NCBI GenBank assembly: GCA_951406725.2
Contig: OX597819.1
Coordinates: 64,294,001 to 64,358,000 of the forward strand
DNA length: 64,000 bases
Source: Octopus vulgaris
Taxonomy: Eukaryota
Direction: 5' to 3'
The notes under the pieces were generated by a model. It was not told the origin of the DNA. It made no database searches and worked only from the letters and a program-made list of their open reading frames with translations. Both the position numbers and the translations under genes were made by a program. Positions 5,360 through 46,384 of the stretch are shown here, in pieces (positions within the stretch are counted from its first letter, which is position 1; each line of letters starts with the position of its first letter).

Positions 5360-5740
5360 TTACACAAATACTAGAACTGGGCGCCACTGCATATTGCCAA
5401 AGGCACCAAATTTGCCATCAAGATGTAAGACAAAATACTGTGATAGCTTGGGCTTCAGATGTCCCCCGCTCTTCAATATCCCCCCGAAGGACCTGAGAGA
5501 CCTGCATGGGGTGGATGCAGATGTCTTTAAATTAAAGCTGGACCTCTTCCTGTCAGGTGTCCCAGATGAACCAACTTCACGGCAGGAGGTGTAGATGAGA
5601 GCAGCTGCATCAAACACTCTCATGCACCAAATGTCAATTGCTAAAAAGCATTCGTGGAGTAAAATCATGTAGCAACAACGAATTGCGGTGCCCCAGCATG
5701 GCTACAGCTCGTGAGCTGAAACTAGATAAAATAAAATAAT
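5360..5740 (+). mobile_element. 5'-truncated copy of the CR1-clade LINE (3' end of ORF2 plus 3' UTR)
   Basis: Encodes YCDSLGFRCPPLFNIPPKDLRDLHGVDADVFKLKLDLFLSGVPDEPTSRQEV, nearly identical to the C-terminus of 38489-39295. Ends CAGCTCGTGAGCTGAAAC plus (AAAAT)n. Confidence 0.92.
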
Positions 5741-14209: not shown

Positions 14210-14333
14210 CACATACACGCCTGTACATATACATACAAACACACATATAAACATAAGAATGAAGTATTACTTTCCCCATACGTATTGCAGTAATTTCCCT
14301 TTATTAACTGTTTTTTTTCATAGCGTTTGTCTT

Positions 14334-14394
14334 AATAACTGATGATATGCCGGAGCAGACTTCAGCCCCGGCATCTGAAATTCTGAGTTTTATT
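14334..14394 (+). ncRNA. Type I hammerhead ribozyme motif
   Basis: AATAA-CTGATGA-T-ATGCCGG...CCGGCAT-CT-GAAA-TTC-T-GAG-T-T-TTATT: stem I AATAA/TTATT, 7-bp stem II, near-palindromic stem III with a 1-nt loop, GUU triplet. Confidence 0.75.
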
Positions 14395-14417
14395 ATGACA
14401 ACCAACTAATTGTCACA

Positions 14418-14639: not shown

Positions 14640-14897
14640 GGGTGAAGGAGATGGGTCGATGTCGCTGCGCTCTTTTGAGTTTGCTAGCTTGGTATTGGTT
14701 CACCTTGGACTTTGGATAGCCAGAGGTTAAGTTATTTCTGGAAAACATCTGCCTCACTACTCCATGGAGATCCAGCAGGTATTTTGGCAAGGAGCTAAAT
14801 AGCTGTGGGTGCTTGAAACCCAAACCATTGCAGTAAATTGTTCTCGCATTAGATGAGACAGCTGCGACTTTTGAAATAGTGTAGTGACGTCCAATTC
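14640..14897 (-). mobile_element. Old CR1-clade LINE 3' ORF2 fragment (related subfamily)
   Basis: RIGRHYTISKV...RTIYCNGLGFKHPQLFSSLPKYLLDLHGV aligns to RTGRPCVVPR...RIRYCDNLGFRGPQLFNILPKNLRDLHGV of the large LINE. Confidence 0.8.
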
Positions 14898-14948
14898 GAA
14901 ACATAAAAATTCGAAAAAATAAAATCATAAAACATAGAAAAGAAATTC

Positions 14949-15121
14949 TACGTGGCGTAGTTGGAACTGGGAACACTGAAGAATGGGAATATTCTTTCTG
15001 TTGTATATCACGTTTCTGATTTTATCGTTGTCCGAAAAAATTTTGTTTCTATGCTTTTGTCTTTATGTTTTCATTTCTCATTGTGTTCAACGTTTTTTTG
15101 ATGTCCTCTACCCATATAAGC

Positions 15122-15171
<50 letters not shown>

Positions 15172-15990
15172 TTGTATATGTAAGTATGTACATATATGTA
15201 TATATGCATATGTTTATATTATTATATGATCGAACGCCACGCATCCTTTTCCGTAAGTTTTATATTAATAATTACGAGGCGTGCTCTTCCCCTTTACTAT
15301 TTTTTCTCTGTCTATCTCCCTCACGCTCTTGTTCTTCATTCTTTTTAGTTTTCTCTCCCATCCTTCCCTATTCTTCTCCTCTCCCCTTCACCATTCCCTT
15401 TTTCTCACTCCACCTCCTCGACTCTCTCGCCGTTGTCACGTGACGAGTGGGAATCCATCTTTCTGACTACTACCTACGCAAAGACTAAACGGGCTTATCC
15501 TGTCTCTTCATAAGCTCGTCTTCTTAAACTTTCAGAATAATTTTCCTATCGTCTTGGCCTAACAACCCTCATCGTTTGTTTTTACTGTTTTGTTCTCCTT
15601 GTTCTGTCTTTTACTATTTTAACTTTTTTATTGTTTTTACTGTTTTTTTCTCACTGTCCTATTCTTGTTACCACTTTCGCCTTCCGCAAAAAAATCCCGA
15701 ATTTTATTTAATTTGCTTTTCGGAAAGGACTGTTTCAACGTAGTCACTTCTTGTCCTTGCCTTCTAAACGTGGATTAGCTGAAACAGAGACAACTGAAGA
15801 AGGGGAATATTCTTTATGTTGTATGTCTCGTCTCTCTGTTTGGTTTTTCGTTGTTCCAAAAAACTAAATCGTTTCTATGTTTTTATTTTATGTTTTCATT
15901 TCTCATTGTGTTCAACGTGTTTGCATATCCTATAACCATATATGCATTTATGTATGTATATATGCATATATTTATATATTATTTATTTTA
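14949..15990 (+). mobile_element. Terminally redundant non-coding element (~818-bp unit, >1.2 copies), retrozyme/Penelope-like, locus 1
   Basis: CTGAAGA..GGGAATATTCTTT...CATTTCTCATTGTGTTCAACG occurs at 14976 and again at 15794. The body is homologous to 45445-46362. A short inverted piece lies at ~14895-14947. Confidence 0.8.
15730..15805 (+). ncRNA. Non-circularly permuted hammerhead-like motif, copy 1
   Basis: Order: [long stem III arm-TTC-TTGTC] [CCTTC-TAAA-CGTGGA...GCTGAAACAG] [GACAA-CTGAAGA-AGGGG]. G12>T and G16.2>T in this copy. Confidence 0.62.
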
Positions 15991-16041
15991 TATTATATTA
16001 TATTACATTATATTATATTATATTATATGATATTATGTTAT

Positions 16042-18271: not shown

Positions 18272-18335
18272 TTCCTCGCTGATGAAGGAAAAAATCCTAT
18301 TTGGATTAATCCAGAAATCGGAGCTGATGGGGATT
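18272..18335 (+). ncRNA. Type I hammerhead-like motif (degenerate, inverted partner)
   Basis: TTCCTCG-CTGATGA-A-GGA...AATCC-TATTT-GGATT...TCC-A-GAAA-TCGG-AG-CTGA-T-G; position 17 is G in this copy. Confidence 0.55.
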
Positions 18336-29603: not shown

Positions 29604-31205
29604 ACACGCTGGTCAAAATAAGTTTAAGACCAATGTTGGCAGTTCTATTTGTTCATTAATATATTTTGAAGAAAACTGTATAAAATTATTATACTTTTTT
29701 CAGCTTATGTAGAATATTTGTCTCTTTCGAATGTCACAAATGTAATATCTCTTTCTACAATTTGAATAATTTTAATGCGCAATTAAAGCAAATAATTAGA
29801 AATTGCTGGTAAAGTAAGTTTAAGACCGTACCAAGATTATGAAAATTCATTAAGTAAATTGGTTATCATATGGCTCGTTGTACTGCACTGTTTTGTTTAA
29901 TAATCGAGCATTGTTACACATTAATTCGCTGCGGGAAAGCCTCGTAATATCAACCCATGTACTAGATGAATGATAGTGTTGCTTCATCAGCAATGTGTCA
30001 GGATAAAAGAAAACGAATTGTGTTTAAGCATGGAAGCTTTACCAAGCCACTTGCCAATACAAATATCGCAAAGAACAGGAGCTCCGAGAAAAGCAACAGT
30101 AGAGATGGATCGGTGAATTTACTGACTCTCTAAAGGTAACTGAATCCTAACAGCGGTGGATATTTGAAAGCAATTATATGATGTAACTGACAGCTTTACA
30201 CCACAAACTCTCAGAAACGGCCTAAACGAATTTGGACTGTTCGGCCGGACAGCTCGAAAGAAGCCGATTATTTCTGAGATGAACTGGTGGACGAGACCAA
30301 GTTTGCTAAAAGCCATGTTGAATGGACGGCCGATGACTGGTCAACAGTTCTTTGGAGCGAGGTATCCCGCTTCTTCCTTTTTGGATCAAATACAGAGACT
30401 TATGCTAGACGCCGTCCAACTAAAGAATTCTATCCTAAGTGTGTCAGGAAAACGGCGCAAGGAGAAGATAAGGGAAGGGGTAATGTTGTCGGCCGCATTC
30501 AGCAGCTCAGGTGTCGGCTTATTTGTTAGGTTTGATGGCAGACTAAACAGTGTAGTCTTTCTGCAATTGGTAAATGAAAATGTTCTCCCATATAATCAGA
30601 TGCCATCGGGAACTATTTTCCAGCAGGAAAATCGCCACGTTCATAAGTCTAGGAAAGTTTTACTATATTTTGAGCACAATAATAAGGTTGTTATTGACTA
30701 GTCTCCGCAGAGTCCGGAATTTAATCCGATATAAAATTTATGGAATTAGGTTTAGAGGAGTTCATGCTAAAAAAAAAAAAAAAACAAATTTGTCCCAATC
30801 ATATAATTTCGTTGAAGAAATACGATAGAACATCCCAAGTGAATTTTGTGCTATTTATCGAACTCCATTACTCGCCGTTGTAAGGCTGTAATTGAAAATA
30901 ATGGCTATAGAACTAGATACTAATAATAAAATTTTATTCGTTAGTCATTTGTACCGTAAATTTTCAATTTAAAGAAAATAATGTTGCCACGGTCTTAAAC
31001 TTATTTTGCCTACAAATTTTAATCATTTAAATTTATTGTGCAGCAGAATTATTCAAATCGTAGAAAGATATAACGCCTATATCATTCGAAAGAGAAAGAA
31101 ACTCTACAAAAACTGTAAAATGTAAAATAAATTTATACAGTTTTGTTAAAAATAATTAATGAAGGAATACAACTTTCATTATTGATCTTAAACTTATTTT
31201 GGTCA

Positions 31206-38488: not shown

Positions 38489-41476
38489 TCACGAAAGCTT
38501 TTTAGCGACTGCCATTTGGTGCATGAGAGAGTTCGATGCAGCTGCACTCATCTGCACCTCCTGCCGTGAAGTTGGTTCATCTGGGACACCTGACAAGAAG
38601 AGATCCAGTTTCATTTTAAAGACATCTGCATCCACCCCATGCAGGTCTCTCAGGTTCTTCGGGAGGATATTGAAGAGCTGTGGGCCTCGGAAGCCCAGGT
38701 TATCACAGTATCTTATCCTACATATTGATGGCAAATTTGGAGTCCTAGGCACCACGCAGGGGCGCCCAGTTCTGGCATTTGTGTAACTCTCGATACCAAA
38801 GTTTGGGACACGTCCCTCCAGGATCTTCCAGATGTATATTATGGCATATCTTTCCCGCCTACGCTCCAAGGAATATAGTTTTAATCTCTTGAGTCTTTCC
38901 CAGTAGCTTACATTCTGCATAGAAGCTATCTTCTTCGTGTAGCTACGTTGGATCGCCTCGAGTTCTGTGATCAACTTGACACTGGATGGTGACCATAACT
39001 GGGAGCAATAGTCAAAGTGGCTTAGGACAAGTGTCCTCCAGAGGACCATCATGGTTTCTTGTTCTCTTGTTCTAAAGGTTCTGAGAATCCATTCGGCCAG
39101 TCGTCTACATTTCATTGCCAATTTAGCAACATGTACACGAAAGGTTGCGTCATCACTCATGTAAATACCCAGGTCACGCACTGATTGTGCCTCTGGGATT
39201 GCTATTCCTCCGGGTCCAGTGTATTCATTGGGTATTGCATTTAGTTTTGCATGCTGATAGTATAAAGCTTGAAACTTTTCAGCATTGAACTGCATGCTAT
39301 TCTTTTCAGCCCACTTGTATATTTTGTCCAGCTCACATTACAGGCGTTTAGTGTCCTCAGGGTTCTGTATTGCCTGTGAAACTTTTGTATCATCTGAATA
39401 ACTTGTGATCGTGGATCTCTGCGTGGCTGAGGGCATGTCTGAGAGGGCCATTATGAACAGTAGTGGTCCCAAAACAGTGCCCTGCGGAACACCGCTCACT
39501 ATTTGCGTGTTAATGGAAGTGGCCCCATTGGCTACTACCACCTGACTTCTATCTTTCAGAAAGTCATGAAGCCATTCTCCCAGTTTTCCAACTATGTTGA
39601 GATCACGCAGTTTGTGACATATCATTCCATGATCGACTTTATCAAAGGCCTTTGCAAAGTCGAGATATATCACTTCCACATTTGAGTGGTTGAGCAGCCG
39701 TTTCAGCACCCAGTCATAGTGTTGTAGGAGCTGAGTTAAACAGCTTCTCCCTGGTTGGAAACCATGTTGGGTGTCGGGCAGCAAGTCATTTTCTTCAAGG
39801 AAGGTGATCAGTTTCCTTCTGACTATTCGTTCCATGACCTTGCTGATGTGTGAGGTCAGAGAGATAGGTCTGTAGTTCTTGGCCTCCGCTCTGCTACCTC
39901 CTCTATGAATGGGGCATAATTTATCTTCCTTCAGTTGTCTTGGAAGTTTGCCATCTGCAAGGAAGCTCTGAAAGAGGAACTGCAGTGGTCTTGCTAGGAC
40001 TCTCTTACATACTTTTAGGAGGATTGCCGGGAATCCATCGGGGCCAGTAGCTGAGTCTGTTTTCATTTCATCTATAGCCTTTATTACATCGTCTTCCTTT
40101 ATATCGATGTAATCTATCGTCGCCGCCTCTGATTTTATATCTGCAGTGGTAAAGAAGTCAGTTGGATTGGTGATTTGGAGATGCCCAAGGGGTGGAGTGA
40201 AAACACTCTTGAATTGCTCATTCAGTATTTCACTTACCCTCATTGGTTTTCCAGTAAGTGTGCCATCCTTTTCAAGGAGTGGCCCTATCCTACAGTGCGC
40301 CGTAGCTGTTTCTTTGGCATACCTCTAGAAAGCTCTGGGGTTAGATTTTATGTTGTCTATAGCCCAGGCTTTTTTGTCTGCTCTTTCCTTTTCATGGGAG
40401 AGTTGCAGACATTTTTCAATTTCCAACAGTTTTATTCTCAGGCGGGACTTTTCACTGCTTTCAATCTGTTTGTTTAGGCGATTTGAAATTTTTGTACGCC
40501 GTCTCATTAAAATTTTCCTCTCTCTGGGGATTTTGTTCTTGTGTACAGTGGCCTTTCTCTCTGGGACACATTTGTAGCATATGGCTTGCATTACAGACAT
40601 GAATCGTTGAAGTTTCACGTCGATGTCTGGCGAGGAGAGACATTTAGGCCAGTTTTGTTTGAGGATCTCTTTCTCAATGTGTTTCCAGTTTGCCTTATGA
40701 TAGTTCAAGCTGGAAAGATTCTGAGGGTTTCTTGTAGGCTGCATGTCTGTGCTCTCTTTTGGCCCGTATATGGTCAGCTCTACCATGTTGTGATCCGAGA
40801 GTAGTGTCGGTGTCACTTTCACATTATGAATGAGATCCATATTATTTGTGAAGCAGAGATCCAGTGTGTTACCTGCCCTGGTTGGTTGGAGTATTACTTG
40901 CTCCATGTACAGGGTGTTGATGAGGTTCAGGAAGGACCTCGCCTGTCCTCGTTCACATCTTGTCATTCCTGGGAGAGAAAGGCCCTCAGGGCCATCTGAC
41001 ATTGGGTAGATTGAAGTCTCCCATGAGAAGTACACTTATGTGTTGTTCTAATGTGATTAGAACTTCTATTTTTATAAGGCAGTCTTCAAACTTGCCTACA
41101 TGGCTTGGAGCATCTGGAGGGCGATATGTAGCACACACAACTACATCAAGTTGCCTTATGTGTACAATTAGTGTGTCACACACCGAGTTTGAGTATGACA
41201 AAAGGACCTGGGGTGTGAGGTCCTCACGGATGTACATAGCAACTCCTCCACGACTCCTTTCTTTTCTGTCGGTCCGTAGTACAACATACTGTGGTATGTG
41301 TAATTCCGCATCTGCTATGTCAGGTGCGTTTCCGTAAGTGCTATGCATAAGGCTTGATTGCATGCGACAAAGTCTCTCAAGAACGGTTTTTTTTTCCTGT
41401 TACTGAGCGTTTGCAGTCCTCTGATGTTCAGTAGGAGCATCGAGGTGAGGTGTATGTTGTTGCCGGCGGTGTCCAT
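38489..41476 (-). pseudogene. LINE ORF2: apurinic-type endonuclease plus reverse transcriptase (frameshifted, with stops)
   Basis: APE motifs LNIRGL, IALTETHL, RGGVAMYI, YRPP, MGDFNLP, PTRAGNTLDL, SDHNMV. RT motifs NYRPISLTS, QHGF, YLDFAKAFDKVDH, GVPQGTVLGPLLF, YSDD, RDLG, YSLERRRERY. Split across five ORFs. Confidence 0.95.
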
Positions 41477-45444: not shown

Positions 45445-45447
<3 letters not shown>

Positions 45448-46362
45448 TTTGGATGATCTGTACCCATATATGCATGTATATATACATATATGTAAGTAAG
45501 TATATATTCATATATTTATATATTATTTATATTATTATATGGTCGAACGCCACACATTCCTTTTGCAAGTAAGTTTTATCTTAATAATTACGATGCGCAC
45601 TCTTCCTGTTTACTATATCTTCTCTGTCTATCTCTCTCCCACTCTTGTTCTTCATCCTTTCTGGTTTTCTCTCTCACTCTTCCCTATTCGTCTCCTCTCC
45701 CCTTCACCGTTCCGTCTCTCTCACTCCTCCTTGACTCTCTCGTCGCTGACACGTGATGAGAGGGTATCCATCTTTCCGACTACTACATTTACAAAGACTA
45801 AATTGGTTTATCCTGTCTCTTCCTAAACTCGTCTCCTTAAGCGTTCAGAATAATTGTTCCAACGTCTTGTCTTAGCAGCCCACATCGTTTGTTTTTCCTG
45901 TTTTGTTCTCCTTGTTCTGTCTTTTACTGCTTTTACTTTTTTATTGTTTTTACTGTTGTGTTCTCACTATCCTGTTCTTGTTACCACTTTCACCCTCCAC
46001 AATATTCCCAAATTTTATTTAATTTGCTTTGCGGGAATGACTGTTTGAACGAAGTCGCGCCTTGTACTCACCTTCGAAACGCTGAGTAGATTAAACAGGG
46101 ACAACTGAAGAAGGGGAATATTCTTTGTGTTGTATGTCTTGTACACTGATTTTTTCCGCTGTTTCAAAAAAGGTCGTTTCTATGTTTTTGTTTTTATGTT
46201 TTTGTTTCTCATTGTTTAAAGTGTTTTTGCTGTACTGTACCCATATGTGCATGTAAATATACATATATTTGTAAGTATGTACATATATGTATATATATAC
46301 ATATGCATATATTTATACATCACTTATATTATATGATCGAATGCCAGGCATCCTTTTCCAAG
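45445..46362 (+). mobile_element. Terminally redundant non-coding element (~780-795-bp unit), locus 2 of the 14949-15990 family
   Basis: CTGTACCCATAT...GTAAGTA...G(G/A)TCGAA(C/T)GCCA...TCCTTTT(G/C)CAAG is present at 45445-45570 and again at 46222-46362. The body is colinear with 15200-15950. Confidence 0.85.
46041..46116 (+). ncRNA. Non-circularly permuted hammerhead-like motif, copy 2
   Basis: CTGTTTGAAC..TCGC-GCC-TTGTA / CCTTC-GAAA-CGCTGA..GATTAAACAG / GACAA-CTGAAGA-AGGGG. U16.1>C in this copy. Confidence 0.65.
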
Positions 46363-46384
46363 AAAAAAAATATATATAAATACA

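Follow-up and report, generated by a model that had tools for sequence, protein, structure and literature searches.

A non-coding octopus repeat with a predicted, rewired hammerhead ribozyme and the insertion footprint of Penelope-like elements

The window, a 64,000-nt stretch of the Octopus vulgaris genome (contig OX597819.1, positions 64,294,001 to 64,358,000), contains two copies of a non-coding repeat. These were mapped on an 801-nt reference unit, positions on which are prefixed u. The copies and their parts are listed below, helix names being those of the fold described further on.

14912-14947, minus strand: inverted 5' fragment of 36 nt ahead of locus 1, corresponding to u635-669
14950-16031, plus strand: locus 1, 1.33 units (1064 nt of the 801-nt unit), ending at the main AT-rich 3' end
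14950-14987, plus strand: 3' half-ribozyme in the upstream partial unit of locus 1 (IIIa, P4b, Ib, CTGAAGA 14976-14982, P1b)
15679-15805, plus strand: full predicted rewired hammerhead of locus 1, decayed, with helices placed from family covariation
P1a 15679-83, P2 15684-15723, IIa 15724-28, P4a 15730-39, plus strand: 5' part of this ribozyme
IIIb 15745-49, predicted cut after 15750, Ia 15751-56, plus strand: its cut region
IIb 15760-64, GAA 15765-67, IIIa 15768-72, plus strand: its middle
P4b 15778-87, Ib 15788-93, CTGAAGA 15794-15800, P1b 15801-05, plus strand: its 3' part
45446-46365, plus strand: locus 2, 1.18 units (944 nt), stopping at the tail point
45992-46116, plus strand: full predicted rewired hammerhead of locus 2, decayed, with the cut predicted after 46061, GAA 46076-78 and CTGAAGA 46105-11
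46335-46362, plus strand: optional 3' tail of locus 2 past the main end point, of a type found in 12 of 59 copies

An earlier note on this DNA had described the two loci as differently permuted copies of a ribozyme-bearing element, and its local observations were borne out. CTGAAGA is present at 14976 and 15794, with a further copy at 46105; locus 1, put at more than 1.2 units, maps to 1.33; and locus 2, said to begin about 150 nt further along the unit, begins 148 nt further, with a redundancy of about 143 nt. The short inverted fragment reported ahead of locus 1 aligns to the unit with a score of 45, as high as which none of 500 dinucleotide shuffles came. No ORF of at least 150 aa overlaps either locus, in agreement with the same note. 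A 78-aa frame in the unit (P0001) was rejected as an ORF remnant, as it has no Pfam match and is not conserved in sister family B; none of 297 candidates, all of them longer proteins, was a homolog of it. Locus 1 begins 3 nt past the GAA of the motif, which places its 5' end some 18 nt 3' of the predicted cut, and its left flank (14780-14905) is itself a multi-copy repeat. Identity between the two loci is 79.5% over 953 columns, and within locus 1 the redundant parts match each other at 79.3% of 222 columns. The predicted ribozyme of locus 1 has a core change of G12 to T, and that of locus 2 has U16.1 changed to C and a mismatch in stem I; both copies are old and, to judge from the core mutations in each, probably inactive.

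The window also holds other elements. A worn type-I-like hammerhead of another family lies on the plus strand at 14325-14405, 550 nt upstream of locus 1, with CTGATGA at 14339 and stems I and II intact; its fold z is -4.1 and it falls under the Rfam gathering score. Related CTGATGA motifs at 18279 (plus strand) and 17619 (minus strand) belong to an inverted pair of another repeat and fold no better than shuffles. A LINE-type endonuclease and RT frame with two stops occupies 38489-41035 on the minus strand (RVT_1, E 2e-24); a section of this frame matches 5360-5735 in inverted orientation at 87%. A Tc1-like transposase remnant lies at 30168-30701 on the plus strand (HTH_Tnp_Tc3_2, E 9e-5).

The whole genome (2.8 Gb, 227 contigs) was searched for the family of the two window loci, family A. 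The unit gave 4836 first-pass candidates, 40 of which were scored, and a ribozyme-only query gave 2981; the repeat is present in several thousand copies in this animal genome. The mapping of start and end points that had been proposed beforehand was performed on 59 distinct family-A loci and on 69 insertions of family B. The 59 loci were the top matches of the unit and ribozyme-only searches after removal of one duplicate, the unit search being biased towards long copies. Their 3' ends lie at u745-801 (38), u1-3 (3), u30-40 (12), u700-744 (4) and elsewhere (2), so that 57 of the 59 end within u700-801 or u1-40, while their 5' starts occupy all eight 100-nt bins of the unit. The main 3' end is AT-rich, some copies carry a 30-40-nt tail, and the targets are (TA)n. 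More than one unit is present in 23 of the 59 copies, and several have inverted 5' pieces. In terms of sequence, the combination of scattered 5' ends, fixed 3' ends, partial tandems, inverted 5' pieces, 30-40-nt tails and (TA)n targets is the published footprint of an endonuclease-positive (EN+) Penelope-like element (PLE; PMC8557442). According to the work on Poseidon, ends fixed at 3' and scattered at 5' are the outcome of internal RT initiation on any tandem template (PMC11167929).

A non-autonomous, ribozyme-bearing retroelement copied in the PLE manner, as the note had suggested, therefore agrees with the footprint, whereas its differently permuted copies do not: random circular permutation is ruled out by the fixed 3' ends. 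The window loci do end at two different points, but these are not free permutations, since locus 1 stops at the main 3' point of the family and locus 2 at the tail point about 35 nt on. Two observations that had been named as contradicting the proposal were not made. The fixed TG..CA ends of an LTR element were not found in these copies, which have scattered 5' ends and no common fixed one, duplications being unreadable within (TA)n; and the redundancy is no locus-specific slippage, as it occurs in 23 of the 59 family-A copies. No coding flank in common was seen among the 59 family-A and 69 family-B insertions.

In the alignment, the conserved blocks of the predicted ribozyme run from the cut block through GAAA to CUGAAGA, which is the non-circular order S-G-C. 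Assignment to type I, II or III was rejected, as no GAAA follows CUGAAGA. The Rfam scan of the window gave nothing at gathering score, and no Rfam hammerhead turned up there, nor among the 131 matches with E<=1 from four loci. Intact relatives keep the core letters CUGANGA, GAAA, NUH, A15.1-U16.1 and G10.1-C11.1, and a diverged copy shows compensatory changes in stems I and III. The GUC site singled out in the note coincides with the predicted cut position. An early pattern search for further families returned 479 matches against 13 in the control, and a core-word pattern returned 4154 against 20.

Covariation was examined in 24 natural copies from five sister families, to which three Naiad-type copies were added to give 27 rows. 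Block spacings were fitted per family for the pairing counts of the 27-row and P4 sets, and for stems I and III a script did the counting, because MAFFT had misregistered the S block of family D. In the 24 copies, the strand ahead of GAAA pairs with an upstream strand, giving five pairs, in three of which both bases have changed. The segment that follows CUGANGA has its partner far upstream, forming P1; this far-upstream strand adjoins a hairpin, P2, that runs directly into G10.1. On 27 rows all of these helices are 91-96% paired: stem I in 129 of 135 cells, stem III in 124 of 135, the upstream stem II in 129 of 135 (with three Watson-Crick types at three of five positions and G10.1-C11.1 in 27/27), P1 in 123 of 135 and P2 in 100 of 108. 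A further helix, P4, is paired in 131 of 144 cells (24 rows); it bridges stems I and II at their far ends and meets stem III via a GAA/AGUA-type internal loop, which may resemble loop-E. Together, P1, P2 and stem II show 95.2% pairing, compared with 58% or less in slid registers, and both partners have changed in 7 of 14 pairs. The double changes come mostly from one lineage (D), all sources being D, one C variant, B/E and the Naiad-type copies, and therefore represent only a handful of events. The pairings were present in 0 of 79 testable chance hits from metagenomes, against 19, 18 and 15 of 30 genome hits; for this null, 80 of 116 listed core-pattern hits were fetched, and none had the pairings. 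By eye, 8 of 11 genome misses were truncated or inverted directly upstream of GAAAC. Nested folding gave weak z values, of -1.2 to -2.0 for intact A, B and D copies and +1.6 for a Naiad-type copy.

Covariation favours a type-SGC-like fold whose ends would be joined by a purine-rich internal loop and whose backbone would be reopened between A9 and G10.1, where P1 and P2 close it. One possible way of closing the predicted fold is a domain-swapped dimer; a similar puzzle over closure within one molecule is mentioned by Eckert et al. (PMC10085705). It is unlikely, in our estimate, that the motif is instead an ordinary type-SGC hammerhead whose stem II forms through the G-run after CUGAAGA-A, with P1, P2 and the upstream strand IIa acting as an off-switch and with mobility as proposed below. 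This plain stem II is paired in 101 of 108 cells in one count and to 96.9% in another, with G-C at its base, and the published SGC-3/4/5 oligonucleotides, inspected by eye, have one extra nucleotide after CUGAUGA, as the repeat does. However, it consists mostly of U-G, with two U-G pairs and one covarying pair, and is broken in Naiad-type and family-C copies, whereas the upstream strand offers five Watson-Crick pairs with three covarying positions. The 5' strand of stem II was accordingly not found intact within block C, right after CUGANGA; the upstream strand covaries instead. The plain pairing may persist as an alternative state of the rewired fold.

The closest known ribozymes are the type-SGC hammerheads (HRIMA-1 and variants; Eckert et al. 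2023, PMC10085705). The repeat resembles them in its S-G-C order and full core, in the 3-5 nt linker between stems I and II, and in a helix that connects stems I and II at their far sides: P4 would correspond to their essential interaction helix. It differs in that the 5' strand of stem II lies upstream and that P1 and P2 stand between A9 and G10.1, which breaks the assumption in that report that block C is indivisible. The repeat occurs in thousands of copies in an animal genome, whereas type-SGC ribozymes were described from metatranscriptomes and from none of the genomes of known organisms. No description of the rewired layout was found in the open-access literature.

Signs of cutting were sought in 53 distinct insertions of the sister families, chosen only by words from GAAAC onwards, with simple repeats masked (54 were found, and L104 was dropped for an internal deletion). 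As many as 18 of the 53 have their 5' end or inversion point at 0 to -17 of G12, that is, up to the predicted cut, and 1 of the 53 has it in the next stretch, -18 to -35. The rate further upstream would predict 4.5 (p about 1e-6), and three of the 18 ends lie no more than 1-2 bases from the predicted cut. This pile-up just 3' of the site is an indirect sign of cutting in vivo, although in the older families it could also come from stalling of the RT at structure. Near the cut, family B has 6 of 67 5' ends against 3.4 expected (p=0.13), and an exact pile-up at the cut was rejected for this family, with 0 of 69 ends within 5 nt. Another reading is that the fold is a hammerhead-derived RNA signal (for RT binding, stalling or 3'-end protection) that is conserved but no longer cuts, copies being made from uncut tandem transcripts. 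The site was read across in 63 of 69 family-B insertions, and in the published Poseidon results unprocessed RNA was the main substrate, no reads stopped at the cut and ribozyme cleavage was dispensable for insertion in vitro (PMC11167929). We nevertheless hold a signal without cutting to be quite unlikely: core letters and NUH are conserved across families with changed stems, and the pile-up is confined to the 3' side of the predicted cut.

Family B is a young sister family, 66-74% alike to family A. A family-B 25-mer has 754 exact matches in the genome (control, 0), the first 100 of which yielded the 69 mapped insertions. Most (67/69) end at u248-256 of the family-B unit, some 250 nt past the predicted cut on its 3' side, and lie mostly between (TA)n. 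More than one unit is present in 39 of 69 and more than two in 5, the longest reaching 6.2 units; two ribozyme sites are covered by 21. All 31 junctions inside the arrays, which lie at the 3'-end position, are seamless. Units differ at a median of 2 positions within arrays (n=17) and 13 between arrays (n=448). In 7 of 35 insertions, sample-private variants, nine in all, are common to all passes; one of these variants, checked genome-wide, was confined to the three units of a single array. One template molecule must therefore have been reused. The corresponding comparison in the window loci gave 2 and 0 derived changes in common between redundant parts, their age being too great to inform.

Two ribozyme sites are spanned by 21 of the 69 insertions, which makes a circle the simplest way to such arrays; we see about an even chance that the long ones were read repeatedly round one circular monomer. 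Only this array step, the fifth in the order given below, is contested by routes without a circle, namely homologous template jumping along a linear RNA with terminal redundancy, or tandem amplification of DNA after insertion, to which we give slightly less than an even chance. Each of these would also yield seamless junctions and private variants in common, the junction of an RNA circle has the same sequence as a genomic tandem junction, and just 5 of 69 insertions exceed two units. Against later amplification, private variants occur in both passes even at 1.2-2 units, which points in many cases to reuse of the template at the time of insertion and favours a circle or a self-jump. In one array of three units (L147), clustered T>C and A>G changes are common to all units and might stem from RNA edits that reverse transcription then fixed; overall, though, A>G does not predominate among the nine private variants. 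Separately, six of the 69 5' ends, in second or later passes, fall at family-B unit positions 72-95, just 3' of the ribozyme, and may reflect a pause of the RT. The family-B unit, but not a neighbouring repeat, is covered by contigs of runs presumed to be RNA, which is not proof of transcription.

The rewired layout was also found downstream of RT remnants in a Naiad-type copy (L344). By eye, it ends the published Naiad_Obim and Naiad_Ovul sequences and is more worn in Naiad_Esco, and copies in the genome match the published Naiad_Ovul and Naiad_Obim ends. In Craig et al. 2021 these cephalopod 3' ends are listed as HHR_half_core, and Naiads are reported as having no normal hammerhead (PMC8557442). 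Like Naiads, the repeat shows 5' truncation, partial tandems, an inverted 5' piece, a 30-40-bp tail and a (TA)n bias; it differs from them in having no ORF, and no DNA likeness of the unit to any Naiad-type copy or other autonomous element was found outside the ribozyme layout. The Naiad-type copies sampled are decayed (74-82% pairwise) and about as old as family A. A Naiad origin of the rewired fold is likely. The 9-letter word CATCCTTTT immediately precedes the 3' terminus both of the family-A tail (window 46345-46360) and of Naiad-type copies (L295-L323) and is perhaps an RT start signal in common; it is absent from family B.

A search for copies attached to an RT/GIY-YIG ORF, proposed in the note, did not yield a parent: among the 30 of 150 scored GIY-YIG loci that were inspected, none had the unit as a sense 3' UTR. 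The genome does contain many copies of an intact PLE with a 781-aa ORF (RT and C-terminal GIY-YIG), which ends at a fixed AT point ahead of (TA)n with an optional 35-nt tail; it lacks a hammerhead and does not resemble the unit, and its cysteine linker is like that of Neptune as described in PMC8557442. A young representative, L224:106-3787, has a long upstream frame besides the 781-aa RT/GIY-YIG frame (L224:1445-3787) and many near-identical copies, and its 3' UTR holds tandem repeats containing TGACGT.

Taken together, we regard it as likely, with some reserve, that the repeat is a non-coding element with one rewired, predicted hammerhead per unit, copied in trans by a PLE RT/GIY-YIG protein with an internal start on the RNA. 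What was observed is the footprint of insertion together with covariation of the helices, and from these we infer the following steps. First, a tandem copy would be transcribed across two ribozymes and the RNA cut after the NUH triplet. Second, the PLE protein would nick (TA)n, and cDNA synthesis would begin at one of two places: a fixed point some 250 nt 3' of the cut, or a second point 30-40 nt beyond it, which would give the tail. Third, on cut linear RNA the enzyme would run off near the cut, producing the 5'-end pile-up; fourth, on uncut or re-ligated RNA it would read through; and fifth, it may pass repeatedly round a circular monomer to give the long arrays. A stronger version falls somewhat short of an even chance in our judgement: that the fold, with its A9-G10.1 link opened and two helices inserted, is an active topology outside the six published permutations and an overlooked Naiad ribozyme, and that it cuts and circularises an 800-890-nt RNA, around which the PLE enzyme reads after starting at a fixed internal point.

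Metazoan non-LTR retrozymes (PMC7229834; 10.64898/2026.07.22.740005) resemble the repeat in being non-coding and low in GC, with one ribozyme per unit, in ranging from monomers to multimers and in their link to PLEs. They are defined by a type I hammerhead, which the repeat does not have, and circles have been shown for them, whereas the repeat is known here from genomic copies. The unit, which the note had called longer than is typical of animal retrozymes, does exceed the 170-400 nt of one report (PMC7229834) but falls within the 51-972 bp of the other (10.64898/2026.07.22.740005). With the Poseidon PLE of Anolis (PMC11167929), the repeat shares two internal RT starts 30-40 nt apart, 3' of the hammerhead, and AT-rich targets; Poseidon is autonomous, with a canonical hammerhead and a mechanism shown in vitro, whereas the mechanism of the repeat is deduced. 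Classified on its sequence, the repeat is a probably PLE-mobilised, non-LTR-retrozyme-like element with a new hammerhead variant whose activity is predicted.

If this is true, hammerhead permutations would extend past the block rules of Eckert et al., non-circular permutations would move from unassigned metatranscriptome RNAs to an animal genome, and Naiads would no longer be seen as thriving without a hammerhead. Since the motif is missed by standard type I/III descriptors and by Rfam, genomic ribozyme counts may be too low. Family B would offer a directly testable substrate for the part that ribozymes play in the life cycle of Penelope elements and for the insertion of animal retrozymes from circles.
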